Assembly (NCBI GenBank): GCA_963810935.1
Contig: CAWEPK010000002.1
Coordinates: forward strand, 1 to 30,613
Reading direction: 5' to 3'
Source of the DNA: an uncultured delta proteobacterium
GTDB taxonomy: Bacteria; Desulfobacterota; Syntrophorhabdia; Syntrophorhabdales; WCHB1-27
Length of the DNA stretch: 30,613 nt
This document shows positions 5,542-23,103 of this stretch, one piece after another (positions within the stretch are counted from its first letter, which is position 1; every line of letters starts with the position of its first letter). Below the pieces are notes generated by a model. The model was not told where the DNA came from. It was given only the letters and a program-made list of their open reading frames with translations, and searched no databases. Made by a program: the position numbers and the translations under genes.

Positions 5542-7135
5542 CTACACGTCCATTAAGAGACTCTTCCCGCTCTTGAACCCCATGATTATTGCGCCCTTCG
5601 CCTTCTGAAAAAATGCGGCGACCAGCCCGGCGTCGACCGGCTCGTCGTGGAAGGTCCGGCTTGCCGCATCGTAGCAGACGAACCGCTTTTCCGTCAGAAG
5701 GCGCTCCACTATGGTCCGTTTCCTTTCGTCGCCCGCCGCGGCCGCAGGCAGGTCGCTTGCCCGCAACGGTGCATCGGGTGCGTCGAGAATGGTCTTTACG
5801 TAATTAATGAATCTCACGAGTTTTACGAACGTATACGTGACCTGCCTCGGAAAAAGCGGATTGACGGGGAGCATGACGCTTGAGCGCATGTAGCGCAAGG
5901 GGATGTCTATTTCTGCGGCCGAAGCCGCCATCGGGCTGCCCGGCGCAAGGTAAAAAATGCTCGGCCCGAGAAGAACCCGGTGTCCCATGAGGAAGCAGAG
6001 CGTCTCAAGGAGGTCGGCAGGGCTTTGGCTTGGCAGGCCGATGATGAAATGGACCTCCACGAGGAAAGACGAGGCGTCGAGCCAGGGCAGAAGCCGGACG
6101 AAAGAGTCGTGCGAGGCCCTGGCCTGGGCTGCGACCACAGGCAATGACAGGTCCACGAGCGAGAAATTGAGGCGCCGGAAGCCCGCCCGGTGCATAGCCT
6201 CCAGCGTCGGGGCATCCATCCGCGACGGATAGACCCCGTTCATGGCGGAAAGGGTCATCTGCCTGCCGCTGAAAAGGCCGAGTACCTCATGGAAGAGGCG
6301 CCTGTCGAGGTTGAGCATGTCGTCCTCGAAATCGACGGCCTCGATCCCTAATCGGGCGCATTCGTCTATCTCCTCTTCGATGGCCCGAAGGCCCCTTCGC
6401 CTGTAAGGTGCAGGCGGCTTGCCGCAGAAGCTGCACGCGTTGGGGCACCCCCTCGACGTCAGGAAAAAGGCGTAATTCTTTCTACCGATGCGGTAACGGT
6501 CCGCCTCGATGTATCGCCGGCCGGGGAGTCGGTCGATATCTGCCTCGACGGCGGGGAAGAGAGATATGGGGCGGGCCGCTGCCCTTGAAACAGAGGCCGT
6601 CGATGCCCTTTGTTCCGGGATCGAGGCCTGAAGCCAGGGCAGTCACCAGACTGAAAAACGACGTCTCGCCTTCCCCCCTTACGCAATAATCGACCGCCGG
6701 GCTCGCGAGTACCCGCTCAGGGAAGAGTGTGGCGTGGACCCCGCCGACAACCGTGACGATCTCTCTACCTGCCTCCTTTGCAGCTTCCGCCACCTCGATG
6801 GCCTGCCGCTCGAAGGCGCTGCACATTGCCGAGACGGCCACGATATCCGGCCTTTCCTTTTCCATGGCCGCCTTTATCGAGGCACGGGGCAGGCCGAACC
6901 GGCTGTAGCGGGAAAAAAACGAGAAGGGAGTAAAGACGTTCTCCCTGTAGAACGGCCCCAACTCCTTGAAATCATTAGCCACAGTGACCGGCTTACGGCC
7001 CGTCCTAGCGTCGAGAACGGCCACATCGGCGATTTCGCCCACTGCGGCGGCAATATAGAGGAGGCCGAGGGGATAGGTCCTGATCGAAGTGTCATAGAAA
7101 TCTTCGATGGGCGGCTGCACCAGGAGCACCTTCAT
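5542..7135 (-). CDS. B12-binding-domain radical SAM protein (~530 aa), with a +1 frameshift at GGGG 6553-6556
   Basis: N-terminal MKVLLVQPP...YPLGLLYIAA...VGGVHAT...RGEGE. After removing one base the frame continues to TSRGCPNACSFC (CxxxCxxC), FEDDMLNLD and into ORF 5542..6318. Confidence 0.88.
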
Positions 7136-7466
7136 ACGTATCACTATAGTTAAAAACCGCGATGAATGGAAGGAGCAGACAACCCGAATAATTGCAGTTC
7201 TGGCATATTTGCCGGAACCATCCGTAATATCTCGCGGTTACTCCGCTGAAAACGGCTATTTTCGGTCACGCGGCCACAGGCCCGGTTCTTGCAGATTTGC
7301 CGGTTGGGTTAGTACGCCACAATATATTGTGTTATGTCCGCATCGCCTTTGTAGAAGAGAGGCTCTACATGATGCGCATCCGCCCGGCCACCCCTTTCCC
7401 CGAAAACGGTTTCCCTGTAGATACATGTACGGGCAGAGCAGCCGGAAAGGCAGTATTATTGCCTAG

Positions 7467-7495
7467 TTGTCTCCGGTTACAAAACACGATATACT
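7467..7495 (+). promoter_or_regulatory. Putative sigma-70 promoter of the formate dehydrogenase operon
   Basis: TTGTCT-N17-TATACT, about 30 bp upstream of the nuoE-like ATG. Confidence 0.55.
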
Positions 7496-7527
7496 CTTCT
7501 GAAGACTTACAAGCTAAGGGAGGTAAT

Positions 7528-7992
7528 ATGGCAGAGAGCAACGATTTTTCCCAGGTAGACCAGGTCCTCAAGGGGCACCGCAAGGAAGAGGGCTCACTCA
7601 TACCGGTACTCCAGGAGGTCCAGGCGATATACGGCTACCTGCCGGAGGAGGCCCTGGTGCTCGTCAGCCGGGGACTCGACCTTCCCATGAGCCGGGTGTA
7701 CGGGGTGGTCACATTCTACTCGCAGTTTTACCTGACGCGCAGGGGGCGCCATACCGTCCGCGTCTGCAGGGGCACAGCGTGCCACGTACGCGGCGGTAAG
7801 TCGGTCCTTGATACGGTCAAGGATTACCTCGGACTGGAAGACGGCGAAACTTCGCCAGATTTTTCTTTCTCTCTGGAGACCGTGGCCTGTCTGGGCACAT
7901 GCTTTCTTGCGCCTGTCATGATGGTCGACAAGAGCTATTACGGCAAGCTCGTGGGTCCGAAGGTCCCTGCCATACTCTCACAATACAAGTAA
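7528..7992 (+). CDS. NuoE/HydC-like [2Fe-2S] subunit
   Basis: GGAGGT RBS; LIPVLQEVQAIYGYLP, VVTFYSQF, VCRGTACHVRG, VACLGTCFLAP. Confidence 0.93.
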   Translation: MAESNDFSQVDQVLKGHRKEEGSLIPVLQEVQAIYGYLPEEALVLVSRGLDLPMSRVYGVVTFYSQFYLTRRGRHTVRVCRGTACHVRGGKSVLDTVKDYLGLEDGETSPDFSFSLETVACLGTCFLAPVMMVDKSYYGKLVGPKVPAILSQYK

Positions 7993-8007
7993 GCGAAGGG
8001 GGACAAG

Positions 8008-11000
8008 GTGAATAGATTAAGATCGACGTCCGACCTGGAGGCTCTTCGGGCCAGGATCAGACAGGAGAGCGACCCGAACAAGATGGTGGTCCGCATCTGC
8101 ATGACCGGGTGCAGGGCATACGGGGCGGAAGAGGCGAGAGACGCATTTGTCCGGGAGATCGCGAGCCGCGGCCTTGAAAAGAAGGTAGAGGTCCGGGAAA
8201 CGGGCTGCCATGGCTTCTGTGCCAGGGCGCCGGTAGCCGCCATAGACCCCCTCGATATATTTTATCAGCAGTTCTCGGCCGAAGATGTACCTGAAATCAT
8301 TTCGGAAACAATAGAAAAGGGCCACGTGATCGAGCGCCTCGCTTTCCCGGATCCAGGCACGCAGGAGCGGATCTCCCACAGGGGCGATATTCCCTTCTAT
8401 AAGGGACAGACCCAGATTGTGCTGCGAAACTGCGGCAAAATCGACCCGCGCAGCATCGAGCAGTACATAGCCAGGGACGGCTACGCTGCGCTCGCCAAGG
8501 TCATGGGGACCATGAAGCCGGAAGAGGTCGTCGAGGAGGTAAAGAAATCGGGCCTTCGCGGACGCGGGGGTGCGGGCTTCCCGACGGGTGTCAAGTGGTC
8601 GTTCTTTGCCGCTGCGCCAAAAGGGACTAAATACCTGATATGCAACGCCGACGAGGGAGACCCGGGGGCCTTCATGGACCGGGCCGTGCTTGAAGGCGAC
8701 CCCAACAGCGTCATGGAGGGGATGCTGATAGCCGCCTATGCCACCGGGGCAACGCACGGTTACGTTTACGTGCGCGCCGAGTATCCGATTGCGGTCGAGC
8801 ACCTGAAGATCGCGACGGCCCAGGCCAGAGAGCTTGGCCTTCTGGGCGAGAACATCCTCGGCTCCGGCCTTTCGTTCGACCTTACGATCAAGGAAGGGGC
8901 AGGCGCCTTCGTCTGCGGCGAAGAGACGGCCCTTATCGCGTCAATCGAAGGCCGCAGGGGCACGCCGAGGCCCCGTCCGCCCTTCCCCGCCCAGTCGGGT
9001 CTCTGGGGGAAGCCGACAAACATCAATAACGTCGAGACCTTCGCGAATATCTCCTCGATCATCCTGAACGGCGCGGACTGGTATGCATCGATGGGTACCG
9101 AGTCGAGCAAGGGAACGAAGATATTCTCCTTGGCCGGCCGCATCAATAACACGGGCCTCGTAGAGGTGCCTATCGGTTTGCCGCTGCACGAGGTCATTTT
9201 TAAGGTCGGGGGCGGCATCCCGAGGGGACGACAGTTCAAGGCGGTCCAGATGGGAGGACCGTCGGGCGGCTGCGTGCCCATGAAATACCTGAACCTCCCT
9301 ATAGATTACGGCTCACTCGAATCGGTGGGTGCGATCATGGGGTCGGGCGGCATGGTCGTAATGGACCGAAATACCTGTATGGTGGACGTTGCCCGCTTCT
9401 TCCTCAGCTTTACCCAGACCGAGTCGTGCGGGAAGTGCGTCCCGTGCCGCCTGGGCACGAAGCGGATGCTCGAGATCCTGACGCGCATCACGAAGGGCGA
9501 GGGCCGGGAAGGGGACATCGAGCTCCCTGGAGGAGGTCGGCCAATCGGTTAAGGACGCCAGCCTATGCGGCCTGGGCCAGACGGCCGCCAACCCCGTCCT
9601 GTCCACGATACGCCACTTCAGGGAAGAATACGAGGCGCACATAAAATACAAGCGGTGCCCGGCCGGCGTCTGCGAAGCCCTGGTCTTCGCACCGTGCGAG
9701 AATACGTGCCCCGTCCAGTGCGACGCGGTCGGCTACACGTCTTTACTGGCTGCGGGCAGGTACGAAGAGGCCCTCAGCCTCATCAGGCTCACAATGCCGC
9801 TGCCCGGCGTCTGCGGGAGGGTCTGCAACCATCCCTGCGAGAAGGTCTGCAAGCGGGGGGAGATCGATGACCCGATTGCCATATCCGCACTGAAGCGGTT
9901 CGCCGCTGACTGGGAGATAAAGCAGGGGAAAATGGCGCCGCCCGTCTTCATCGAGAAACCCAAGGCGGAGAAAGTTGCCGTTGTCGGGTCGGGGCCTGCG
10001 GGTTTGAGCGCCGCCTACCAACTGGGCAGGCGCGGCTACAAGGTGACGGTCTTCGAGGCGCTTCCTGCCGTCGGAGGCATGCTCTCCGTCGGCATCCCTG
10101 ACTTCCGGCTGCCGAGGGACGTGCTCGGACACGATATCGATTTCATCCGCCTGCACAATGTCGAGATCGTAACGGGCAAGGCCCTGGGCAAGGATTTTGC
10201 CGTCAAAGACCTCTTCGGACAGGGATTTAAGGCGGTCTTCCTCGCGATGGGCGCAAACCTCGACCAGAAGCTGGGCATACCGGGCGAGGACGTGGAAGGC
10301 GTGCTGCCCGGCGTAGAGTTCCTGCGGCGGGCGAACCTCGGCGAGAAGGTCAAAGTGGGCAAAAAGGTGGCCGTCATTGGCGGCGGGAACGTGGCGGTCG
10401 ACGCAGCGCGGGTCGCCGTCCGCAACGGCGCAAAGAGCGTAACCATTATTTACCGCAGGACGCGGGACGAGATGCCTGCCAGCGTCGAGGAGATAGAAGA
10501 GGCCGAAGACGAAAAGATAGAAATCGAATTCCTCCTTGCGCCGCTCAAGGTCATAGCGAAGAAAGGCAAGGTCGCCGGGATCGAATGCCAAAAGATGACG
10601 CTCGGCGAATACGACGAGAGCGGGAGGGCCAGGCCCGTCCCCGTTCCCGGCTCGGAGCGCGTTATCGAGGCGGATACGATCATATCGGCCATCGGTTATG
10701 CGCCGGAGATCCTGCGGCTATCGGAAAACGGCCATTTTCCGCGGAATAAAAACGGGACGCTCGTAGTCGACGACGTGACCCTGGCGACGAACGTGCCCGG
10801 TGTCTTTGCGGGCGGGGACGTGGTGACCGGCGCATCGACGGTAGTGCAGGCAATGGCCGGCGGCTGGCGTGCCGCCGTCTCCGTCGACAGGTACCTGAAA
10901 GGGCAAGACCTCTACAAGGACCGTATATACACGGCCGCAAAGAGGGCCGACGTGCCGCGCGACGAGGCAGCCGCGGAAGCGGCCGGCGAGGCGAGAGGCC

Positions 11001-11137
11001 GGGCGGTTATGCCCCAACTGGGCGCGGCGATGCGGGTTTGCAGCTTTACGGAGGTGAACACGGGCTTCGATGAACAGACCGCCTTGAGCGAGGCGAAGCG
11101 CTGCTTGCGATGTGACCTTGAAAGGAAGAAGGGGTAG
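8008..11137 (+). CDS. NuoF/HydB-like FMN/NAD subunit fused to a GltD/NfnL-like FAD/NAD(P) module (~1042 aa), with a +1 frameshift at CCC 9525-9527
   Basis: Thioredoxin-like 2Fe-2S N-terminus, [43 protein letters not shown]. Removing one C gives ...[26 protein letters not shown]...[16 protein letters not shown]...APCENTCP, in frame with ORF 9794..11137 ([36 protein letters not shown]). Confidence 0.9.
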
Positions 11138-11139
11138 AC

Positions 11140-13833
11140 ATGAGCACTATCAACCTGACAATAGACAACATGAAAGTCGAGGTGCCGGCAGGCGCCACCG
11201 TTTTCTGGGCCGCGAAGAAGGCCGGCATAGACATACCACACCTTTGTTACAGGGAGGGGCTGTCGCCGACGAGCGCGTGCAGGCTTTGCGTCGTGGAAGT
11301 GCAGGGTGCCCGGAACCTTTCCGCCTCGTGCTCGCTGCCGGTAACCAACAACATGGTCGTCAGCACGAATAGTCCGCGCGTGAAGGCAGCCCGTCGCATG
11401 GTGATCGAATTCCTTCTCTCCGACCACCCCTCCGACTGCATGACCTGCGAGAAGAGCGGGACGTGCGCGCTCGAAAAGTACGCCTACGAGCTCGGGGTCC
11501 GGAAAAGCGCATTCGAGGGCGAAAGGCACTCGTACCCGGTCCGTGACCAGAACCCGTTCTACGAGAGGGATTATAACAAGTGCATCCTTTGCGGCAGGTG
11601 TGTGACGGTCTGCCACGAGGTCCAGTACTGCGGCGCCGTCGATCTCACTCACAGGGGGTTTTCGACGAAGGTTGCCGCCTTCCAGGACGGCTCGATGCAG
11701 GGCACGACATGCGTATTCTGCGGCAACTGCGTGAGCGTCTGCCCCACCGGGGCGCTCACCGAAAAGGCCGGCCGGTTCCAGGGCCGCGACTGGGAGATGG
11801 AAAAGGTCCCCACGATCTGCTCGTATTGCGGCGTCGGTTGCACGATCGTCCTCAACGTGAAGGACGGCAAAGTCGTAAAGGCGACCACCGACAGGGAAAT
11901 GGGCATGAACAAGGGGTGGACCTGCGTAAAAGGGAGGTTTGGCTTCGACTACATCCATAGCCCCGACCGGCTCGCCTCGCCGCTTATAAAGGAAGGAGAA
12001 GCGTTCCGCAAGGCCGGCTGGGACGAGGCGCTGGACAAGGTCGCATCAGGCCTGAAAGAGGTAAAAGAGAAATACGGGCCGGACGCGATAGGCGTCCTCT
12101 GCTCGGCCAAATGCACCAATGAAGAGAACTACCTGCTGCAAAAGATCGCCAGGCAGGCCATCGGCACGAATAACGTCGACCACTGCGCGCGTCTCTGACA
12201 CAGCTCAACCGTCGCCGGGCTGGCGATGTCATTCGGAAGCGGCGCAATGACCAATTCCATCGAAGAGATAGGGAATGCAGACACGATCTTCGTGATCGGC
12301 TCGAATACGACGGAGAACCACCCCGTCATCGCCCTTGAAATCAAAAAGGCGGTCAGGAAGAGAGGGGCCAGGCTGATCGTGGCCGACCCGAGGAGGATCG
12401 AGCTCGTCGATTATGCCCACCTCTGGCTTGCCCAGAAGCCGGGCACCGACGTCGCGCTTATCAACGGCATGCTGAACGCGATCATCGAAAACGGCTGGAC
12501 GAACGAGAAATTCGTCGTCGAACGGACGGAAGGCTACGACGTGCTGGCCGAGTCCGTCAAGGCATACACGCCGGAAGCGGTCGAGGCGATCACCGGGGTA
12601 AAGGCGGCCGATATGGTCGAGGCCGCGCGCCTGTTTGCAACATCGGGGAGCGGATCGATCCTTTACTCGATGGGCATCACGCAGCATACGACGGGCACCA
12701 ACAACGTCCTCGCCCTGGCGAACCTCTCCATGATTACCGGGCAGATAGGCAAGCCCTCGTCGGGCGTCAACCCGCTGCGCGGCCAGAACAACGTGCAGGG
12801 CGCCTGCGACATGGGCGGCCTGCCGAACGTTTTCACGGCATACCAGAAGGTGGACGACGAGGCGGCCAGGACGAAATTCGAGAAGGCATGGGGCGCGACC
12901 CTTTCCGGCCACCCCGGTCTCACGCTCATGGAGATGATGAGCGCCATAGGCGAGGGGCGGATAAAGGCGCTCTTCATCATGGGCGAGAACCCGCTTTTGA
13001 CCGACCCGGACGGGGCAAAGGTGCGGCGCGAGCTTTCTCACCTCGACCTGCTCGTAGTCCAGGACATTTTTATGACCGAGACCGCCGAGGTCGCGAACGT
13101 CGTCCTGCCGGGCGTGAGCTTCGCGGAAAAGGACGGTACGTTCACCAACACGGAAAGGCGCGTGCAGCGGGTCAGGGCGGCCATAAAACCGATCGGCGAA
13201 GCGCGGCCCGACTGGCAGATCCTCTGTGACCTGTCTTCGCGGCTCGGCCTTCCCATGAGCTACAAGTCGCCGGAGGAGATCATGGCGGAGATCGCTTCAG
13301 TCACGCCCTCGTACGGCGGCATAACCTATGACCGGCTCGACAAAGGCGGGCTCCAGTGGCCCTGCCTCACGGCCGACCACCCGGGGACTACGTACCTGCA
13401 TAAGGGGCAGTTTACGAGGGGCAAGGGCAAGTTCCACGTTACGCCGTATATGCCCGCGCCGGAGCTGCCCGACGAAGAATACCCCCTGTGCCTGACGACG
13501 GGCCGCATGCTTTACCACTACCATGCAGTCATGTCTAGGAAATCGAAGCCGCTTTCGCAGATGGCGCCGGAGCCCATAATAGAGGTGAGCCGCGAGGACG
13601 CCAAAAAGATAGGCTTCAACGGGGAAGGGGCGCGGGTCGTCGTAGAGTCGCGGCGGGGGAGTGTGGTCGTCCAGGCGCGGGCGGTCGACCATTTGCAGCA
13701 AGGGCTCGTCTTCATGAACTTCCATTTCAGGGAGGCGGCGACAAACCTACTTACCCTCGACGCCCTCGATCCCGTCTCCAAGATACCGGGATACAAGGTG
13801 TGCGCGGTGCGGATCCGGAAGGAAACGGCGTAG
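11140..13833 (+). CDS. fdhA: Selenocysteine-containing Mo/W-bisPGD formate dehydrogenase alpha subunit (897 aa) with N-terminal NuoG-like Fe-S domains
   Basis: ORFs 11140..12198 and 12226..13833 are in the same frame and joined by TGA 12196-12198 in the catalytic motif [17 protein letters not shown]. Also [28 protein letters not shown]. Confidence 0.94.
12210..12228 (+). promoter_or_regulatory. Bacterial SECIS hairpin
   Basis: CGTCGCC-GGGCT-GGCGATG stem-loop with a G-rich apical loop, starting 11 nt after the UGA, as in E. coli fdhF. Confidence 0.8.
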
Positions 13834-13879: not shown

Positions 13880-13909
13880 TTGACATAAAAGGTTCTTAGG
13901 TGATATTCT
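13880..13909 (+). promoter_or_regulatory. Sigma-70 promoter of the hydrogenase operon
   Basis: TTGACA-N18-TATTCT with extended -10 (TGaTATTCT). Confidence 0.7.
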
Positions 13910-13930: not shown

Positions 13931-14069
13931 TTCAACTTCCGCGCCCTGTTTTGACAAACAAGAGGCATTCAACGCATACAAAAATGGGTTCGCCGGGAGG
14001 GGCACGACGCATGCGCCGTTCTCAGCGATTCGATTATCCGGCCTAGTGTAACGAAAAGGAGGTAATAGT

Positions 14070-16223
14070 ATGTGGCAATTGAGGAATGATGCGCCAGCTA
14101 AAGTGGAGGCTGCGGTCAAGATATTCCTGCCGCCGTGCCAGAACAAGTGCCCGATCCGCGAAGACATCCAGCGGACGAACGTTCTAATCTCCTTGCTTCC
14201 CGAGGACCCAAAAGAGGCGCGTGAAGGCGTGCTGCAGATCGGTGACAGCCTCTACGAGAGGAACCCGTTTTTCACCGTCTGCGGTTACATCTGCGGCATC
14301 TGCGAGCGGGAATGCAACTACAAAACGAAGGGCGGCTCCATCAAGAGAAGGCTGCTCAAGCGCTTCCTCTCTGACACGTACACCCCCTTCCTCAAGGAGA
14401 AGAAGCCGATCGAGGCCGCGAAGACGGGCATCAAGGTGGCCGTCATCGGCGGCGGCCCCGGCGGGCTCATGTGTGCCTGGGAGATGGCCAAGAAAGGGCA
14501 CGACGTAACGGTTTTCGATAACAACCCGAAGCTCGGCGGCGCCATAAGGTATATCCCTAAATACCGCCTCCCGGAAGACGTGCTCGACGCAGCCGTGGAC
14601 AGCCTGGTGCGGATAGGCGGCATCAAGGTCGAGAAGAACGTGAAGCTGGAAGGTGACGTTATCACGAAGCTGAAAGAGCAGGGCTTCAAGGTTTTCTGCG
14701 TGGCCACCGGCACGCCCTACCCCAGGCCGCTGACTTTCGGCGTTGACAAGATCGAGTGGCAGGGCATGGAGGGCGTCGGCTACGGCCTGAGCATGCTCGA
14801 CGAGGCGGGAAGGGGCCTCCTTCCGCCTGACTACTATAAAGGAAAGAGAGTCGTCGTCATCGGCGGCGGCAACGTGGCCTTCGACGCAGCGAGGACTGCC
14901 TACAGGCTGGGCGGCCAGGTGACGGTCGTCTGCCTCGAGAACGAAGACAAGTCCACGCCGGACGGCATCCCGGCTGATGCGGAAGAGATAGAAGGCGCGA
15001 TCCAGGAAGGCATCAAGATCGTCTATTCCAGGGGCGTGCAGAACATAGTCGCGGAGAACGGCAAGTTCAAGAAACTCGACTGCCCGAAGTGTACGAGCGT
15101 CTTCGACTATAAGGGTTTCAACCCGCAGTTCGACTGCGCCGACTGCCAGGATGTGGAAGGCGACGTGCTTCTTATAACGATCGGCCAGATGTGGGACCGG
15201 ACCCTCCTGCAGAACTGTGGTCTTTTCGACCAGAGCGGCCGGCTAGCCGTAGACCCCCTCACCCGGAGGAGCACTCTGCGCGAGGATGTCTTCCTCGGCG
15301 GCGACGTAAGAAGGGTCGGTTTCATGGTCGATGCCATGGCGGAAGGCCGCGAGTCCGCACAGTCTATGGACCGGTACCTCCGCGGGATGTCTTTGCGGCG
15401 GTGGGGCCTGAGAAGGGAGTCCACCGGGACGCCGACGAGGCACAACTTCAAGGCGGAGCCCCACGCGAAATGGACGGCCCCTACCGAAAGGCAGAACTTC
15501 AATATGTTCGAGATAGGCCTGACCCTTAACGAGGCCAGGGAAGAGGCAAGGCGGTGCCTTGAGTGCGGGCCGTGCCCTGCCTGCAAGGCGTGCGTAACGG
15601 TCGGCCTCCAGCCCGACCTCCCCGCGGTTGAGGTTGACGAGTCGCTTTGCTCCGGATGCGGGGTTTGCGTTGCCGCCTGCAACTACGAGACGGCCCACGT
15701 CGTCGAGACAAAAGAGATCATCGAAGGCAGGGAGGTAAGAACCCGCCTCGTAAGCTATACCGACCCCGTAAAGTGCAAGGCGTGCGGCATGTGCGTAGCT
15801 GCCTGTCCGTCGGGCGCCAGGAGGCTCGACCCTGATCTTTCGCAGGCCGGGAAGATTGCCGAAAAGCCGGGCATCGTCACCTTCGCCTGCAAGTTCGGCT
15901 ACGGTTACTGCGGCAACGGGCTCGGTGCTGACATCAAGTCGTTCGTACCAGTCATCTGCATAGGCAAGGTAGATACCAGCGATATCCTGGATGCCTTCAA
16001 TAAAGGAGCGGAGGGCGTGCTCCTCCTGGGGTGCGGCGACGGCTCCTGCCACTTCCAGGACGGCAACGAAGAGGCGAGGAAGCGCATTTACCTGCTGCGG
16101 AGAGTGCTCGAATCCTTCGGGATCGAACAAGAAAGGGTGAAGGTCGTTACGTCCTTCGACCCGAAAGGGGCGGCCGTTGCGGGACTCGTTAACGAATTCG
16201 CGAACGAGCTCAAGGCTCTCTAA
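14070..16223 (+). CDS. GltD/NfnL-like FAD oxidoreductase fused to a 2x[4Fe-4S] ferredoxin domain and an MvhD/FlpD [2Fe-2S] domain
   Basis: PPCQNKCP, CGYICGICEREC, IGGGPGG, IGGGNVAFD, EARRCLECGPCPACKAC, CSGCGVCVAAC/CKACGMCVAACP, then MvhD-type FAC...VICIGKV...GAEGVLLLGCGDGSCHF...GIEQERV; AAGGAGGT RBS. Confidence 0.88.
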   Translation: MWQLRNDAPAKVEAAVKIFLPPCQNKCPIREDIQRTNVLISLLPEDPKEAREGVLQIGDSLYERNPFFTVCGYICGICERECNYKTKGGSIKRRLLKRFLSDTYTPFLKEKKPIEAAKTGIKVAVIGGGPGGLMCAWEMAKKGHDVTVFDNNPKLGGAIRYIPKYRLPEDVLDAAVDSLVRIGGIKVEKNVKLEGDVITKLKEQGFKVFCVATGTPYPRPLTFGVDKIEWQGMEGVGYGLSMLDEAGRGLLPPDYYKGKRVVVIGGGNVAFDAARTAYRLGGQVTVVCLENEDKSTPDGIPADAEEIEGAIQEGIKIVYSRGVQNIVAENGKFKKLDCPKCTSVFDYKGFNPQFDCADCQDVEGDVLLITIGQMWDRTLLQNCGLFDQSGRLAVDPLTRRSTLREDVFLGGDVRRVGFMVDAMAEGRESAQSMDRYLRGMSLRRWGLRRESTGTPTRHNFKAEPHAKWTAPTERQNFNMFEIGLTLNEAREEARRCLECGPCPACKACVTVGLQPDLPAVEVDESLCSGCGVCVAACNYETAHVVETKEIIEGREVRTRLVSYTDPVKCKACGMCVAACPSGARRLDPDLSQAGKIAEKPGIVTFACKFGYGYCGNGLGADIKSFVPVICIGKVDTSDILDAFNKGAEGVLLLGCGDGSCHFQDGNEEARKRIYLLRRVLESFGIEQERVKVVTSFDPKGAAVAGLVNEFANELKAL

Positions 16224-16247
16224 CCAGTAAGGCCTTAGGAGGAAGAT

Positions 16248-17228
16248 ATGGCTGATAAACCTAAAGTTGCGATAATGTGGCTCGGAGGCTGCGGCGGCTG
16301 CGATGAGGCGGTCGTTGACCTTAACGAGGAGATCCTCAAGGTCGTGAGCGCCGTCGACATCGTGCTCTGGCCCGTGGCCCTCGATTTCAAATACCATCAT
16401 ATAGAGGCGATGAAGGACGGTGAGATCGCCCTGGCCATTATAAACGGCTCGGTCAGGAACTCCGAGCTGGAGGAATTCGCAAGGGTGCTGCGCAGGAAAT
16501 CGCAGCTTGTGCTTGCCTTCGGCGCCTGCGCCTGCTTCGGCGGGACGCCGGCTCTCGCGAACTTCCGCTCGAAGGCCGACATCTTCCAGTGGGTTTATAA
16601 AGACGCGCCCACGGTGACGAACCCGAAGGAAAACTACCCGCAGACGGTTTCGACGGTCGACGGCCATGAGCTTACGCTGCCCGAGCTTTTCGAAGACGTC
16701 AGGACCCTCGACCAGGTGATCGACGTCGATTACTACCTGCCGGGCTGCCCGCCGCCCGTCAACCTGATACTCGGCGCAATCGGCGCGGTGCTTGAAGGCC
16801 ACCTTCCCCCGAAAGGCTCGACGCTCGCACCCGAGAGGGCGCTTTGCGACGTATGCGAAAGGAACAAAACGAAGCCCGAAAAGCTTTCGATCTCCAACAT
16901 AAAAAGGATACACGAGATAGAAGCCGACCCTGAAAAATGCATGCTGGCCCAGGGCGTCGTCTGCTCCGGCCCCGCGACGCGGGCCGGGTGCGGCGAAGTC
17001 TGCCTGAAAATCAATATGCCTTGCAGGGGCTGTTTCGGCCCGGTTGAAGGCGTCAAAGACATGGGTTCCAAATACCTTTCCGCCTTTGCTTCTCTCATTG
17101 ACGCTCCCAACCTTGATGAGGCGATGAAGGTAGTCGATACGCTCGACGACCCTACGGGATATTTCTATCGTTTCACGACGGCGTCCTCTCTGCTCCGGAA
17201 GAAGAGAGAAGCATCCAAAAAAGCGTGA
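16248..17228 (+). CDS. mvhG: F420-non-reducing (group 3c-type) [NiFe]-hydrogenase small subunit
   Basis: WLGGCGGCDE, WPVALDFK, FGACACFGG, YLPGCPP, CMLAQGVVCSGPATRAGC, MPCRGCFGP. Confidence 0.9.
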   Translation: MADKPKVAIMWLGGCGGCDEAVVDLNEEILKVVSAVDIVLWPVALDFKYHHIEAMKDGEIALAIINGSVRNSELEEFARVLRRKSQLVLAFGACACFGGTPALANFRSKADIFQWVYKDAPTVTNPKENYPQTVSTVDGHELTLPELFEDVRTLDQVIDVDYYLPGCPPPVNLILGAIGAVLEGHLPPKGSTLAPERALCDVCERNKTKPEKLSISNIKRIHEIEADPEKCMLAQGVVCSGPATRAGCGEVCLKINMPCRGCFGPVEGVKDMGSKYLSAFASLIDAPNLDEAMKVVDTLDDPTGYFYRFTTASSLLRKKREASKKA

Positions 17229-17237
17229 GGTGTGAGC

Positions 17238-18707
17238 ATGGGTAAAACAATTTCCATAAATCCGGTAACAAGATTAGAGGGGCACGGCAAGATCGACATA
17301 TTCCTCGATGACCAGGGGAATGTAGAGGACGCCTATTTCCAGGTGACGGAGCTGCGCGGCTTCGAGCGGTTCTGTATCGGCAGGCCCGTAGAGGAGATGC
17401 CCAGGATCGTGCCCAATATCTGCGGCGTCTGCCCCACGCCCCACAACATGGCGTCGACAAAGGCCCTGGACAAGGTCTTCGGCGTCGAGCCGACCGTAAC
17501 GGCGAAGCTCGTGCGGCAGCTCCAGTACAACGCCTTCTACATTGAAGACCATTACATCCATTTCTTTTTCCTCGGGGGCCCGGACTTCGTGGTGGGCCCG
17601 GATGCTAACCCGGCCGAGCGCAACATCCTGGGCGTTATCCAGAAGGTGGGCCTCGAGATCGCCGGTAAGGTGATCGAGGTCAGGAAGAGATGCAGAGACA
17701 TCATGCGGCTCTTGGGCAGCAAGGCGCCCCATCCTGAAGGCGGCCTGCCGGGCGGCGTGCCGAGGGGCGTGACCGAGGACGAGCGGGTCGTCATTAAAGA
17801 GACTGCCGACTACGCGGTAGAGTTCTCGAAGTTCGCCCTCCAGTTGTTCAAACAGGTAGTCGTCCAGAACCCGGATTACCTAAAGCTCGTGCTGGACGAC
17901 GCTTATGCCCTGAACACATTTTATATGGGCATGGTCGACGAGAACAAGTGCGTCAACTTCTACGACGGCAACATCAGGGTCGTAAACCCGGAGGGCAAGG
18001 AAAGGGCGCTCTTCGATCCGCAGTTCTATACGGACCACATAGCGGAGTGGGTCGAGCCCTGGACGTTCATCAGGCTCACCTACCTGAAGGTGCTCGGATG
18101 GCAGGGGTTGAAAGAAGGTTTCGGTTCGTCGCTCTACCGCGTCGGCCCGCTGGCCCGCCTCAATGCCTCCAAAGGCATGGCAACGCCGTTGGCGCAGGCA
18201 GAGTACGAAGAGATGTACGCGACGCTCGGGCAGAAGCCGGCGCACCATACACTTGCATTCCACTGGGCGCGGCTCATCGAAGCGATGCAGGCAGCCGAAG
18301 ACATGCAGCGGATAGCCAACGACCCGCTGCTCACCAGCAAAGACACCCGCAACATGGGCATGCGGCTCACCAAGAAAGGCATCGGCTGCGTAGAGGCCGC
18401 GCGTGGGACGCTGATCCACCATTACGAGACGGACGACAAGGGCCTGCTCACGAAGGCGAACCTGATCGTGGCGACCCAGCATAACGCAGCCCCGATCTGC
18501 TTATCTGTGAAGAAGGCGGCCCAGGGCTTCATCAAGGGCGGAGAGCCGAAAGAAGGCCTCCTCAACATGGTCGAGATGGCCTTCCGGGCCTACGACCCGT
18601 GCCTCGGCTGCGCGACGCACACGCTGCCGGGCAAGATGCCGCTGGAGATCGTGCTGCGCGACCGCCAGGGCAATATCGTCGACCGCATAGGCCGCAACCT
18701 GAAATAG
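17238..18707 (+). CDS. mvhA: Group 3c-type [NiFe]-hydrogenase large subunit
   Basis: TRLEGHG, ELRGFERF, L1 ICGVCPTPH, EAARGTLIHHY, L2 AYDPCLGCATH followed by a cleavable C-terminal extension; GAGGTG RBS before ATG 17238. Confidence 0.92.
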   Translation: MGKTISINPVTRLEGHGKIDIFLDDQGNVEDAYFQVTELRGFERFCIGRPVEEMPRIVPNICGVCPTPHNMASTKALDKVFGVEPTVTAKLVRQLQYNAFYIEDHYIHFFFLGGPDFVVGPDANPAERNILGVIQKVGLEIAGKVIEVRKRCRDIMRLLGSKAPHPEGGLPGGVPRGVTEDERVVIKETADYAVEFSKFALQLFKQVVVQNPDYLKLVLDDAYALNTFYMGMVDENKCVNFYDGNIRVVNPEGKERALFDPQFYTDHIAEWVEPWTFIRLTYLKVLGWQGLKEGFGSSLYRVGPLARLNASKGMATPLAQAEYEEMYATLGQKPAHHTLAFHWARLIEAMQAAEDMQRIANDPLLTSKDTRNMGMRLTKKGIGCVEAARGTLIHHYETDDKGLLTKANLIVATQHNAAPICLSVKKAAQGFIKGGEPKEGLLNMVEMAFRAYDPCLGCATHTLPGKMPLEIVLRDRQGNIVDRIGRNLK

Positions 18708-18722
18708 GGATAAGGAACAGAC

Positions 18723-18759
18723 CGCACGCCGTGCAAACCCTGCACGGCGTGCGTTTTTT
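18723..18759 (+). terminator. Intrinsic terminator-like hairpin after mvhA
   Basis: Perfect 13-bp stem CGCACGCCGTGCA / TGCACGGCGTGCG, 5-nt loop, then T6. Confidence 0.8.
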
Positions 18760-18765
18760 AATCAT

Positions 18766-19242
18766 ATGGCTATACCGAAAACACTGGTGCTCGGTCTCGG
18801 AAACACCATCCTCGGCGACGACGGCGTAGGTATCTGCGTAGTAAGGGAGATGCGCCGCACGTGGACGCCGGGTGCCGGCGTCGAGCTCGTCGAGGCAAGC
18901 CTCGGCGGCATGGTGCTTTTGGACCTTATCGCCGGATACGATCACGCAGTAATCGTCGACGCCATCATGACCCAGGACGATAAGCCGGCGGGCTTCATCT
19001 ACGAGCTTGCCCTGGACGACCTGGGAGAGCTGGTAGTGCCGTACGCCTCGCACGCCCTCGATTTGAAGACGACCATGGAGCTGGGCAACAGGCTGGGCTA
19101 CAAGATGCCGGAGACGGTGAAGATCTACGCAATAAAGATCGAGGAGAACACAATCTTCCGCGAGGAGCTGACGCCAGCGATCGACGCGGTCGTGCCAGTC
19201 CTGGCGAAGCAGATTGTGGCGGAGCTTAGCCCGCGCGCGTAA
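18766..19242 (+). CDS. Hydrogenase maturation protease (HycI/HybD family)
   Basis: LVLGLGNTILGDDGVG, VIVDAI, SHALDL. Confidence 0.92.
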   Translation: MAIPKTLVLGLGNTILGDDGVGICVVREMRRTWTPGAGVELVEASLGGMVLLDLIAGYDHAVIVDAIMTQDDKPAGFIYELALDDLGELVVPYASHALDLKTTMELGNRLGYKMPETVKIYAIKIEENTIFREELTPAIDAVVPVLAKQIVAELSPRA

Positions 19243-19902: not shown

Positions 19903-22900
19903 ATGACGGAAAGGTCAGTCAGGCTGCGGGCGTTACTGAAAGCAGACATCTTCATTTTTGTTTGTCTCTTTGCTTTGTTTTCGGTCCCTCTTCGGGGCCT
20001 TGCCCAAACGAGCACTACGTGGAACGGGGCCACGGGCGCCTGGAACGTTCCGGCAAACTGGACGAACGGCATACCGTATTACGGCGTTGACGCACTCATA
20101 TCAGCCCCCAATTCCAACGTTACCATAAACACCGTCACCGGCTTCGGTAGCAATGGAAGCGCAAGGAACCTGACCCTTGGCTCGGACAACAACCTCTACC
20201 TTGCCGTCGGCATGAACCTTTCAGTCTTCGGCAGCAACTATAATGGTGTCAACGGTGATGGCGTCATAACCAATAACGGCGCCATAACCCTTTACGGCAA
20301 CAATTCCATCCTGGGATATGGCAGCTTGACGTTGGCCGGCTCGGGTACCCTGATTATGGACAGCGCCGGGACCAGCCAGATCGTTCCCAACGGCTTGAGC
20401 CCAGGCACCCTTATCAACGGTATAACCATCCAGGGCGCCGGCACAATCGGCGAAAATCTTGCCCTCGGCGGACATCTCGGTTTAGTCCTCACGAACACCG
20501 GCACGATCACCGCCGACCAGGGCAATGCCCTAAACCTTTACCTTAACGACGGCAGCACGAATTCCGGCACCATCCAGGCCACCTCTACGGGCGGGCTAAG
20601 TATCAGCCAGGCGGGCACCCTGACGAACGCGAGCGGCGGCTACATCCAGGCCGCCGGCGGGCCGCTTACCATGTCGGGGAACATTATTAACCGGGGCACC
20701 ATGCAGGCCGCGAACGGAACGCTTAATCTTGCGGCGTCGCCAACGGTCACCAACTCCGGCACCATACAGGCAAACGCTGGGGGCACCGTCATTTTCGGGG
20801 GCGGCAGCGCGATCAGCAATGCCGGTGGCGCGATAAGCGCGTCTGGGGGACATATCTCTTTCGGGACCGGCTTCGACAACACGGGCGGCGCGATCAGCGC
20901 GTCGGCGGGCGGCGGCATCGACCTTGGCAGCGGCACGTTCACCAACGGCAGTTTAACAGCGACAGGCTCGCTTATCAATACCTCGGGAACCCTCACGAAC
21001 ATGGCCATAACCATCGGCCAGGGCGCAGGCCTGCAGGTAAACGGCGGGACGCTGAACGCTTCAGGAACCATAACCAACAACGGCGGCATAAGCCTGAACG
21101 GCAACGCGACCCTCAACGCCGGAACGGGCATCCTGACACTTGCCGGCTTGGGCACCATGACAATGGACAGCAGCGGCAACAGCCGGATCATCGGCGGCTC
21201 AGGGGGCGCCCTCGTCAACGGTACGGGCCACACGGTCCAGGGGGCCGGCACAATCGGCGACGCAAGCGGCATAATTCTCACGAATAACGGCTCGATCACG
21301 GCCAACCAGGGCAACGCCCTCAACCTCTACCTGAACTCCGGCAGCACGAACTCCGGAACCATCCAGGCCACATCGACGGGCGGGCTGAACATCTACCTCA
21401 ACCCATTGTCGGGCGGCTTTTTCTCCGGTACGATCACCAATACGGGCAGCATAATGGCGGCGGGCGGGCAGGTAACCACGTATGGGAACATCGTCAACCA
21501 GGGCACAATGCAGGCCGCGAACGGTACGCTGAATCTGATGAATTCGGCAATCACCAACTCAGGCGCCATCCAGGCAAACGCGGGGGGCGCCGTCCTTTTC
21601 GCGATCGGCGGCACGACAGGCAATGCGGGCGGCAGCATCGGCGCGTCGGGGGGCGGCATAGTCAACCTGGGCGGCAGCACGGTTACGGGCGGCAGCATTA
21701 CAGCGACAGGCACAAACACCCGTATTTACAGCTCCTATATCACCAATCCGGGCAACACCACCCTTACGAACGTCTCCGTCAGCCTGGATCAAAACGCCGG
21801 CCTGCAGATCGATTCCGGGAAGACCCTGACCCTTGCCGGCTCCGGCGTGCTCGCATTATCGAGTTTCGGCGCGGTCGTAAGCGGCGGCGGCACGCCCGGC
21901 ACGATCATCAATGATACGGGATACACCATCCACGGCGCAGGGGCAATCGGAGCGGGGGCAGGCATAGTCCTTGCGAACAGCGGCACGATCACCGCCGACT
22001 CAAGCAGCCCTCTCAATCTTACCCTGGCCTCGGGCAGCACGAACTCAGGAACCATTCAGGCCACCTCGACTGGCGGAATATACATCAATGCGACGTCCGG
22101 TTCTTTCACGAACACGGGCACGCTGCATGTAGCCTCCGGAAGCGGTATGAACGTAACGGGCAATTTCACTAATTACGCCTCGGGCGTCCTGACGGGTGGT
22201 ACATACAACCTGGCGGGGATGCTGGTCCTGCCGGTGCCTACCGGTCAGACCATTCAGACAAACGCGGCGACTATCGTCCTCGACGGCGGCAATTCGTCGA
22301 TCTTCGGCCAGAACATGTCGAACGCCCTGACGGGCTTCGCCGCGAACTCAAGCGGCGGCAGCTTTACGGTCACCAACGGCCGCGCCTTCACGACTTCCGG
22401 GGCCTTCAGCAATGCCGGCGCACTGACCGTCGGGACAGGCAGCGCCTTTTTGGCCGGGAGCCCAGGCAGCCAGACGGTTTATACACAGACGGCCGGGACC
22501 ACGACGGTAAACGGCTGGCTGCAGGCTAGCTCCGTCTCTATACAGGGTGGCATCTTAAGCGGCGTCGGTACGGTCTCCCTTATCGCTGGCCCTTTGTCCG
22601 TTTCAAGCGGGGCTATCATCCATCCCGGCAACTCGCCGGGCATTCTGACGATCAACGGGACCTATAACAACGCCGGTACTCTTGCAATAGACATCCTGAA
22701 CCTCGCAGGCGGTCCCGGAACCGGCTACAGCCAGTTGATCGTCAACAGCACCGGAGTGAGCATACTTGGAGGCACGGTTCAGGTCAATCTCTTAACCGGC
22801 GGCGTGGTAACATCGGGCGATAGGTTCGATATACTGCATGCATCCGGAGGGCTGTCCGGCGCCTTCGCGCAGTTGGCCGGTAACCCGAATTTCTACCTTG

Positions 22901-23103
22901 ACTACGAGGCGAGCGACGTCTACCTCGTCGCCACCCCCATACCGCCGGGCATCATACTGCTTGCGCCTGGTCTGGCGGGCCTTTACGGACTGCGAAGGAG
23001 AATGGGGCGGAAGGCTGAACGCAAAAGGGAGATGCAAAGCGGCGCTTCAAGTCCTACCCGAACTCGCTACTATCCTGTTGCTCGAAATCCATTTGGAGTA
23101 TAG
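19903..23103 (+). CDS. Large secreted Gly/Asn/Thr-rich beta-repeat surface protein with a PEP-CTERM/VPLPA-type sorting signal
   Basis: Signal peptide ...LFALFSVPLRGLA|QTSTTWNG; three internal repeats containing GSTNSGTIQATSTGG; IHPGNSPGILTING; C-terminal TPIPPGIILLAPGLAGLYGLRRR. Confidence 0.85.
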   Translation: MTERSVRLRALLKADIFIFVCLFALFSVPLRGLAQTSTTWNGATGAWNVPANWTNGIPYYGVDALISAPNSNVTINTVTGFGSNGSARNLTLGSDNNLYLAVGMNLSVFGSNYNGVNGDGVITNNGAITLYGNNSILGYGSLTLAGSGTLIMDSAGTSQIVPNGLSPGTLINGITIQGAGTIGENLALGGHLGLVLTNTGTITADQGNALNLYLNDGSTNSGTIQATSTGGLSISQAGTLTNASGGYIQAAGGPLTMSGNIINRGTMQAANGTLNLAASPTVTNSGTIQANAGGTVIFGGGSAISNAGGAISASGGHISFGTGFDNTGGAISASAGGGIDLGSGTFTNGSLTATGSLINTSGTLTNMAITIGQGAGLQVNGGTLNASGTITNNGGISLNGNATLNAGTGILTLAGLGTMTMDSSGNSRIIGGSGGALVNGTGHTVQGAGTIGDASGIILTNNGSITANQGNALNLYLNSGSTNSGTIQATSTGGLNIYLNPLSGGFFSGTITNTGSIMAAGGQVTTYGNIVNQGTMQAANGTLNLMNSAITNSGAIQANAGGAVLFAIGGTTGNAGGSIGASGGGIVNLGGSTVTGGSITATGTNTRIYSSYITNPGNTTLTNVSVSLDQNAGLQIDSGKTLTLAGSGVLALSSFGAVVSGGGTPGTIINDTGYTIHGAGAIGAGAGIVLANSGTITADSSSPLNLTLASGSTNSGTIQATSTGGIYINATSGSFTNTGTLHVASGSGMNVTGNFTNYASGVLTGGTYNLAGMLVLPVPTGQTIQTNAATIVLDGGNSSIFGQNMSNALTGFAANSSGGSFTVTNGRAFTTSGAFSNAGALTVGTGSAFLAGSPGSQTVYTQTAGTTTVNGWLQASSVSIQGGILSGVGTVSLIAGPLSVSSGAIIHPGNSPGILTINGTYNNAGTLAIDILNLAGGPGTGYSQLIVNSTGVSILGGTVQVNLLTGGVVTSGDRFDILHASGGLSGAFAQLAGNPNFYLDYEASDVYLVATPIPPGIILLAPGLAGLYGLRRRMGRKAERKREMQSGASSPTRTRYYPVARNPFGV

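Follow-up and report, generated by a model that had tools for sequence, protein, structure and literature searches.

The hydrogenase unit and its conservation

The contig CAWEPK010000002.1 (genome assembly GCA_963810935.1), from an uncultured member of the Syntrophorhabdales, carries four adjacent open reading frames (ORFs) that encode a fusion of a GltD-type flavoprotein, a ferredoxin and an MvhD domain, the small and large subunits of a [NiFe] hydrogenase (MvhG and MvhA), and a hydrogenase maturation protease (Table 1). The window examined here is this entire contig (C2 of the genome), 30,613 nucleotides in length. The four products have 717, 326, 491 and 158 amino acids (aa), respectively, and the genes are separated by 24, 3 and 58 bp. 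The initial annotation of this DNA described a GltD-type module joined to a 2x[4Fe-4S] domain and an MvhD domain with four cysteines at the expected positions, followed by mvhG, mvhA and a protease gene, and with no genes for the heterodisulfide reductase (Hdr) subunits HdrA, HdrB or HdrC in the window. This description holds. Pfam recognizes Fer4_20 (residues 21-104), Pyr_redox_2 (122-426), Fer4_7 (527-583) and FlpD/MvhD (625-717, E 9e-27) in the fusion, and the downstream products match VhuG, VhuA and TIGR00072. No hdrA, hdrB or hdrC was recognized in a Pfam scan of the 24 ORFs of the window, and BLAST searches with the window proteins together with genome scans for CCG and FlpD domains placed the hdr genes of this genome on other contigs.

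Table 1. Features of the hydrogenase locus, in window coordinates
Feature	Coordinates	Strand	Basis or remarks
Sigma-70-like promoter, TTGACA-18-TATTCT	13880..13909	+	In the 236 bp that separate fdhA from the fusion gene; 10/12 consensus match
Shine-Dalgarno sequence, AGGAGGT	14057..14063	+	6 nt 5' of the fusion-gene ATG; strong
Output subunit, GltD-type flavoprotein/ferredoxin/MvhD fusion, 717 aa	14070..16223	+	Pfam, homologues, AlphaFold
GltD/StnC-type module (aa 19-500) with Rossmann domains for FAD and NAD(P)H	14124..15569	+	Sequence and fold matches
Orphan CxxCxxC (C502/505/508), no fourth Cys	15573..15593	+	Invariant in alignment; like the half-ferredoxin motif 3' of the GltD insert in HdrL
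2x[4Fe-4S] domain resembling the C-terminal, MvhD-docking ferredoxin domain of HdrA	15615..15839	+	Structure matches
Divergent MvhD domain	15864..16220	+	Four Cys kept; Cys16 to Gly, His68 to Gly, 5-6 residue loop deletion
mvhG, hydrogenase small subunit	16248..17228	+	Oxidored_q6/VhuG
mvhA, group 3c [NiFe] large subunit	17232..18707	+	NiFeSe_Hases/VhuA, L1/L2 motifs
Terminator-like 13-bp hairpin and T-run, between mvhA and the protease gene	18723..18763	+	Sequence only
Hydrogenase maturation protease	18766..19242	+	HycI; TIGR00072 above cut-off

MvhG matches VhuG with E 3.5e-62, and 12 of its 13 cysteines are invariant across 23 aligned sequences. The best NCBIfam match of MvhA is VhuA (E 2e-114, which is under the equivalog cut-off of that family). 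MvhA has the L1 motif ICGVCPTPH (C64 and C67), the L2 motif AYDPCLGCATH (C457 and C460) and a C-terminal extension past H463; the motifs given for group 3c are ICGxCxxxH and AYDPCxxCATH (PMC6085437; most of the articles cited here were available as excerpts, and what is said of them refers to those parts). By these residues the large subunit is a member of group 3c. A Hox-type (group 3d) hydrogenase that would include the upstream nuoEF genes was ruled out by the L1 and L2 motifs, the best matches to VhuA and VhuG, and the absence of linkage. A complex predicted for MvhG, MvhA and the tail of the fusion scored 0.86, and a control in which MvhA was replaced also scored 0.79.

An assembly artefact as the source of the fusion was ruled out by the finding that in 55 of the best 120 listed homologues the FlpD (MvhD) domain is part of the same polypeptide; the others are mostly 589-597 aa long and end after the ferredoxin domain. 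A genome scan yielded 78 loci, of which 46 (L011-L056) were kept for a flavin-core match at about 50% identity or more, while 11 HdrA-MvhD proteins that matched in the tail only, one match at 30% and 20 ferredoxin-only matches were dropped. Nearby and on the same strand, mvhG is found in 44 of the 46 loci and mvhG together with mvhA in 42; locus L044 has a partial mvhA at the end of its contig, and L042 has neither gene. The fused form occurs in Syntrophorhabdales, including the cultured Syntrophorhabdus aromaticivorans, and the unfused form in Smithella and Chloroflexota. The gene is present in 26 of the 96 genomes of the order. A sample of 301 genomes from the phylum gave 16 matches, ten at 53% identity or more and six at about 40%, and no mvh genes were found in the regions fetched for those six. 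A plasmid collection gave no match at E 1e-60.

An hdrA gene was present in the fetched DNA of eight of the 46 loci, on the same strand in six of them; among the 29 loci with long flanks, seven had hdrA and 22 did not. A partial hdrL makes L053 a ninth locus with an hdrA-type gene. In four Desulfobacterota loci (L023, L027, L041 and L052) a same-strand hdrCBA-mvhD-flox cluster with its own canonical MvhD lies downstream. No NfnS- or HydBC-like partner was seen in the conserved unit, the loci having been screened with a FloxA query and not with NfnS. The [NiFe] motifs, iron-sulfur ligands, domain order and gene linkage of the unit are intact or conserved. The proposed Hdr-free arrangement, in which MvhAG connects by way of MvhD and a ferredoxin of the HdrA type to a GltD-type module, is supported, its synteny being conserved and its large subunit belonging to group 3c.

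Among the loci outside this set, L057-L067 encode Promethearchaeota-type HdrA-MvhD fusions of 848 aa, followed by genes for divergent small and large hydrogenase-like proteins (22-25% identity to MvhA).

The flavin module and its ferredoxin-MvhD tail

An AlphaFold model of the fusion, made with an alignment of 56 rows (the query and 55 sequences hand-picked from the best 120 listed homologues), had a predicted local distance difference test score of 86.5 and a predicted template modeling (TM) score of 0.86. The closest solved structures by both sequence and fold are NfnA (9N5U and 9BOV) and StnC (8OH5), with sequence matches of E 2e-53 to 7e-43, followed by NfnL (TM 0.75 by target length) and GltD. 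Based on StnC, the distal cluster would be ligated by C23, C82, C496 and C499, and the cluster proximal to the flavin adenine dinucleotide (FAD) by C27, C75 and C78 together with K97 (or C71). When residues are counted along the pairwise alignment, K97 corresponds to StnC K170 and R166 to StnC R239. The lysine is invariant in the alignment (56/56 rows), as is C71, and it stands at the proximal-cluster site in the query and in all 46 rows of the Mvh clade that cover this site; the NfnL-type glutamate ligand is not present. Lysine ligates the FAD-proximal cluster in StnC and NfnA, whose FAD is non-bifurcating, whereas NfnL has glutamate there (excerpts of PMC10482914 and PMC12018979).

The nucleotide site of the fusion has CLE (residues 288-290) where YRR stands in relatives, and E290 is invariant (56/56). 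For DsrL, YRR is associated with the use of NADP and its absence with the use of NAD (PMC7596348, in part). NAD(H) is more likely than NADP(H) to be the nucleotide of the fusion, since CLE stands in place of YRR.

An additional invariant CxxCxxC (C502, C505 and C508) is located ahead of the dicluster ferredoxin domain. The ferredoxin tail matches 9sfi_A 578-634, 5odc_A 578-635 and 7bkb_A 597-650, and searches with HdrA queries confined the similarity to this tail, which corresponds to the C-terminal ferredoxin domain of HdrA. In HdrA, this domain docks MvhD and takes part in electron transfer (PMC13518236 and bioRxiv 10.1101/2021.09.25.461819, both in part). Four cysteines of the MvhD domain (C607, C630, C655 and C660) are kept in 46 of 46 aligned tails and are the probable cluster ligands. 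The fifth cysteine of canonical MvhD (Cys16) is gone, with G610 in its place in the fusion and glycine or serine in 46 of 46 tails (counted from the tail alignment rather than with a motif expression). The position of His68 is occupied by G656, with no histidine among the residues tallied (45 of the 46 tails listed), and a loop of 5-6 residues is deleted. Cys16 and His68 of MvhD are located toward the HdrA flavin (PMC13580544, in part). Stand-alone MvhD proteins from the unfused Desulfobacterota-type loci have the same changes as the fused tail, and the Hdr-linked MvhD proteins in those same loci mostly retain NWC and GCH. By these residues the MvhD domain of the fusion has diverged away from Hdr.

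Chloroflexota-type homologues (L037-L040, L042 and L044) have a canonical MvhD and an N-terminal receiver-like extension, which Pfam confirmed as Response_reg for L039 only (E 9e-29).

Origin and proposed function of the unit

All trees were quick reconstructions with support from the Shimodaira-Hasegawa-like approximate likelihood ratio test (SH-aLRT) only. A tree of 73 cores gave a series comprising a sister clade that lacks Mvh (6 rows), Chloroflexota-type proteins with canonical MvhD (7), unfused Desulfobacterota-type proteins with divergent MvhD (18) and the fused proteins (22). The NfnL-type glutamate is found in all six rows of the sister clade; its members (L105-L110) are GltD-ferredoxin proteins of 590-616 aa, at about 40% identity, that have CLE and no mvh neighbours. 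In a tree of MvhA, 36 of the 40 near-full-length linked rows form one clade (SH-aLRT 97), the two halves of which parallel the division of the flavoproteins into a fused and an unfused clade. The linked MvhA of L018, L020 (S. aromaticivorans UI) and L030, which is 56-58% identical to the window MvhA, groups instead with the Hdr-linked MvhA on contig C16 of the present genome (SH-aLRT 100). In these three loci the fusion precedes an Hdr-type MvhAG, which is apparently a natural swap of partners.

The best relatives among proteins of 1256-3585 aa are HdrL-type proteins (type III HdrA, in which HdrA has a GltD insert; PMC12054007, in part) at 33-42% identity. In the 30 HdrL-type proteins inspected, the matching region is the GltD insert of HdrA, in which LKRF, containing the lysine, and a CLE or SLE nucleotide site are frequent. 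The insert is followed by EAxRCLxC-CxxCxxC-xxxC; the fusion keeps C496 and C499 as well as C502, C505 and C508, lacks the fourth cysteine of the junction, and continues into the HdrA-type tail. It differs from HdrL further in lacking both thioredoxin-reductase halves of HdrA, in having MvhD fused to it, and in its length (717 aa, against 1290-1690 aa for HdrL). In a tree of 50 rows the fusion family falls among the HdrL inserts (22 sampled from 97 single-domain inserts, plus the HdrL of contig C16), and this group is separated from 13 other GltD-type rows with SH-aLRT 100; three HdrL-type rows (L035, L037 and L042) fall among those 13.

The output subunit likely descends from an HdrL that lost its bifurcating HdrA core. 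This descent is put no higher than likely: the inserts had been selected as the best matches to the query, and the nesting of the family among them has an SH-aLRT of only 85, both of which count against it. MvhD would probably then have lost its HdrA-facing residues and, in one lineage, become fused. The initial annotation had suggested that the HdrA flavin core was replaced by a GltD core. The module is indeed not the thioredoxin-reductase core of HdrA, but it appears to group with the GltD inserts of HdrL, and loss of the bifurcating core from HdrL fits at least as well as replacement. A truncated HdrL was ruled out, as full-length orthologues share the N-terminus of the fusion and no protein of 1256-3585 aa exceeds 42% identity among the 120 listed.

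MvhA, MvhG and the fusion probably constitute a soluble, non-bifurcating H2:NAD+ oxidoreductase that operates independently of Hdr. One NAD-type flavoprotein would here take the place that heterodisulfide reductase normally has beside methanogen-type Mvh hydrogenases. From the features described above we infer how the complex would assemble, the path its electrons would take, the nucleotide it would use and the direction in which it would run. Electrons from H2 would pass from the [NiFe] site through the clusters of MvhG to the [2Fe-2S] cluster of MvhD, and from there to the two HdrA-type clusters of the tail and possibly the three-cysteine site. The two GltD-type clusters would then deliver them to FAD and NAD+, the whole forming one unbranched wire as in StnC and NfnA. 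In syntrophic degraders of aromatic compounds and fatty acids the net reaction would likely be the re-oxidation of NADH with formation of H2 at low H2 pressure. Formation of H2 from NADH without ferredoxin has been shown for the [FeFe] hydrogenase HydAB of a syntroph (PMC7311640, in part), and the unit could be the [NiFe] counterpart of such NADH-to-H2 enzymes. The initial annotation considered the enzyme possibly bifurcating, a suggestion that the evidence did not support; bifurcation appears unlikely because the lysine is as in StnC and NfnA, no NfnS partner was seen, and MvhD lacks Cys16 and His68.

Several observations weigh against this assignment. The second Rossmann motif of the fusion is GxGxxA, which is associated with NADP (PMC12054007, in part), although it was found here in YRR-type and CLE-type proteins alike. 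The arginine tied to bifurcation in NfnL is retained as R166, a conservation that is also common to the non-bifurcating StnC, and the functional meaning of the exchange of lysine for glutamate is stated to be unclear in the available part of PMC12018979. HdrA-type genes occur elsewhere in 95 of the 96 genomes of the order and in all five carrier genomes checked; HdrB matches were found in four of the five, and the fifth (G085) has no HdrB match but has 19 CCG matches, one of them beside hdrA. Moreover, the hdr and mvh genes frequently lie apart (PMC6085437, in part). Synteny is no bar to an Hdr partner in trans, given that HdrA is so widespread and hdr so often unlinked. In two Chloroflexota loci (L037 and L042) the gene lies directly 3' of hdrC-hdrB-hdrL, and L042 lacks mvhAG.

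Alternatively, the fusion and MvhAG might be an arm of a larger Hdr complex that pairs in trans with HdrA or HdrL and HdrBC, providing a bifurcating Hdr with an NADH port. The wide occurrence of HdrA-type genes, the same-strand hdr genes in six of the 46 loci (which in L037 and L042 lie immediately upstream), the HdrL affinity of the nearest long relatives and the Hdr-type MvhA of L018, L020 and L030 all favour such a complex. It is nevertheless unlikely, as the fusion lacks the thioredoxin-reductase and N-terminal domains of HdrA and is matched by HdrA queries in its tail only, its MvhD has lost Cys16 and His68, most long-flank loci have no hdrA, and the hdr clusters that were observed have a canonical MvhD of their own.

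It is unlikely, though conceivable, that exchangeable MvhD-bearing modules determine the output of MvhAG, which would then be a plug-in hydrogenase, and that the present module goes beyond a simple diaphorase. The three-cysteine site and the tail would in that case serve as a ferredoxin exit, giving a new type of bifurcating enzyme that needs neither HdrA nor HydB to couple H2, NAD+ and ferredoxin. On this view the module of S. aromaticivorans precedes an MvhAG of the Hdr type, and the receiver domain of the Chloroflexota proteins could gate the switch. A new bifurcating hydrogenase in a general sense, with an NfnL-like splitting of electrons at the FAD or with H2 reducing both NAD(P)+ and ferredoxin through a low-potential exit at the tail and three-cysteine site, is improbable. 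The fold homology with NfnL, the retained R166, the glutamate in the Mvh-less sister clade and the unexplained invariance of C71 and of C502, C505 and C508 are consistent with bifurcation; against it stand the lysine throughout the Mvh clade and a conserved unit that showed no gene resembling NfnS or HydBC, and the domain order suggests that, as in StnC, every cluster is located on the same side of the FAD. The notion that the hydrogenase and the upstream NuoE, NuoF-GltD and selenocysteine-containing FdhA form one physical complex, a soluble formate-hydrogen lyase, is very improbable: a same-strand fdhA no more than 400 bp upstream is found in nine of the 46 loci, all close relatives, but the arrangement is missing from the other 37 (in some owing to short contigs), L015 has the upstream nuoF-gltD without fdhA, a promoter-like site lies between the two clusters, and the two clusters, each with a pyridine-nucleotide module of its own, could be coupled well enough by way of the NAD(P)H pool.

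The preferred H2:NAD+ oxidoreductase shares parts with several known systems. With the group 3c complex MvhAGD-HdrABC (PDB 5ODC and 9SW2) it has in common the L1 and L2 motifs of MvhA, MvhG, the four-cysteine MvhD and the HdrA-type ferredoxin dock, but it lacks the flavin core of HdrA, the N-terminal shuttle-cluster domain, HdrBC, and Cys16 and His68 of MvhD, and its output is a GltD-type FAD module. StnC and NfnA of the Nfn-Bfu transhydrogenases share the position of the lysine-ligated proximal cluster and the conserved arginine; they have YRR (NADPH) and a bifurcating HydBC core, whereas the fusion has CLE and is connected through MvhD to a [NiFe] hydrogenase. NfnSL differs in its glutamate ligand and its YRR NADP site, neither of which is found in the fusion. 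Group 3b and 3d hydrogenases have FNR-type or NuoF-type flavin subunits. These enzymes and the non-bifurcating HydAB of Syntrophus aciditrophicus (PMC7311640, in part) share the proposed reaction, H2 and NAD(P)+ to and from NAD(P)H and H+ without ferredoxin; HydAB has an [FeFe] site, whereas the unit described here has a group 3c MvhAG with a GltD-type FAD. By its description, DsrL, the NAD(P)H module of DsrAB (PMC7596348, in part), is similar in having a GltD-type body and a C-terminal dicluster ferredoxin as a pyridine-nucleotide port, but its partner is DsrAB and it has no MvhD.

The literature describes proteins of type Ia (HdrA-MvhD) and type III (HdrA-GltD). Searches of an open-access collection that lacks most subscription papers turned up no account of a GltD-ferredoxin-MvhD subunit paired with MvhAG, and the unit is not mentioned in the available parts of PMC5736913, PMC10579272, PMC5606693 and PMC7325909. 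FAD/NAD-binding subunits are mentioned for Mvh1 of S. fumaroxidans (PMC5947623), which may have a similar layout; no account of its gene architecture was found in PMC8691401. The unit is real and conserved, and it appears to be uncharacterized. The locus adds to the known systems a fused degenerate MvhD, a likely origin from HdrL and a cultured carrier, S. aromaticivorans UI.

Genes of this kind ought not to be classed as electron-bifurcating by default. If the unit is truly a simple H2:NAD+ enzyme, then some of the hydrogenases labelled group 3c, a conserved fraction of them, have been misassigned in the syntrophs of this order, in Smithella and in Dehalococcoidia, and the ratio of NADH to NAD+ would determine the H2 thresholds of the carriers in methanogenic communities. 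The degenerate MvhD is also a natural control for how Cys16 and His68 of MvhD pass electrons to the HdrA flavin (PMC13580544, in part).

Other genes of the window and the genome

Upstream of the hydrogenase genes, positions 7297-13833 of the forward strand carry nuoE, a gene in which nuoF is fused to gltD, and an fdhA for a selenocysteine protein, with its in-frame TGA (CARL*H) at 12196-12198. In place of the ferredoxin domain of HydB, this NuoF has a YRR-type GltD module at its end. The nuoF-gltD gene is split by a frameshift near 9525 and is whole (1039-1125 aa) in L012, L013, L015, L017, L025 and L027. NuoE, NuoF-GltD and FdhA are possibly a formate:NAD+/NADP+ enzyme of unusual layout. The promoter-like site between fdhA and the fusion gene suggests that the latter belongs to a separate transcription unit; the site is a consensus match, weak by itself, and four such sites were found against 2.3 +/- 1.7 in shuffled sequences, a count near chance.

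Elsewhere the genome holds a canonical hdrCBA-mvhDGA cluster (G000:C16:142701-149131), in which two frames share the mvhA sequence, a group 3b-like sulfhydrogenase of four genes (G000:C3:74296-79920), a NuoD-like group 4-type large subunit, hypD, and ten MvhD-type domains in all. No [FeFe] hydrogenase was detected in this genome, which is 93% complete. There are three tRNA-Sec genes (G000:C4, C6 and C11) and near-duplicate nuoF clusters on contigs C1 and C12, and contamination of the genome is 7%; the additional tRNA-Sec genes and the duplicate nuoF clusters may reflect redundant assembly.

On the reverse strand at 5542-7144, an ORF with a B12-binding domain and an adjacent ORF of 258 aa correspond to a single ORF of 544-563 aa in L012, L017, L025 and L026, and their split is probably another frameshift in this assembly. 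Downstream of the hydrogenase locus, positions 19903-23103 of the forward strand encode a repetitive, secreted-looking protein of 1066 aa that is rich in glycine, asparagine and threonine, has no Pfam match and ends in what we take to be a PEP-CTERM-like tail.

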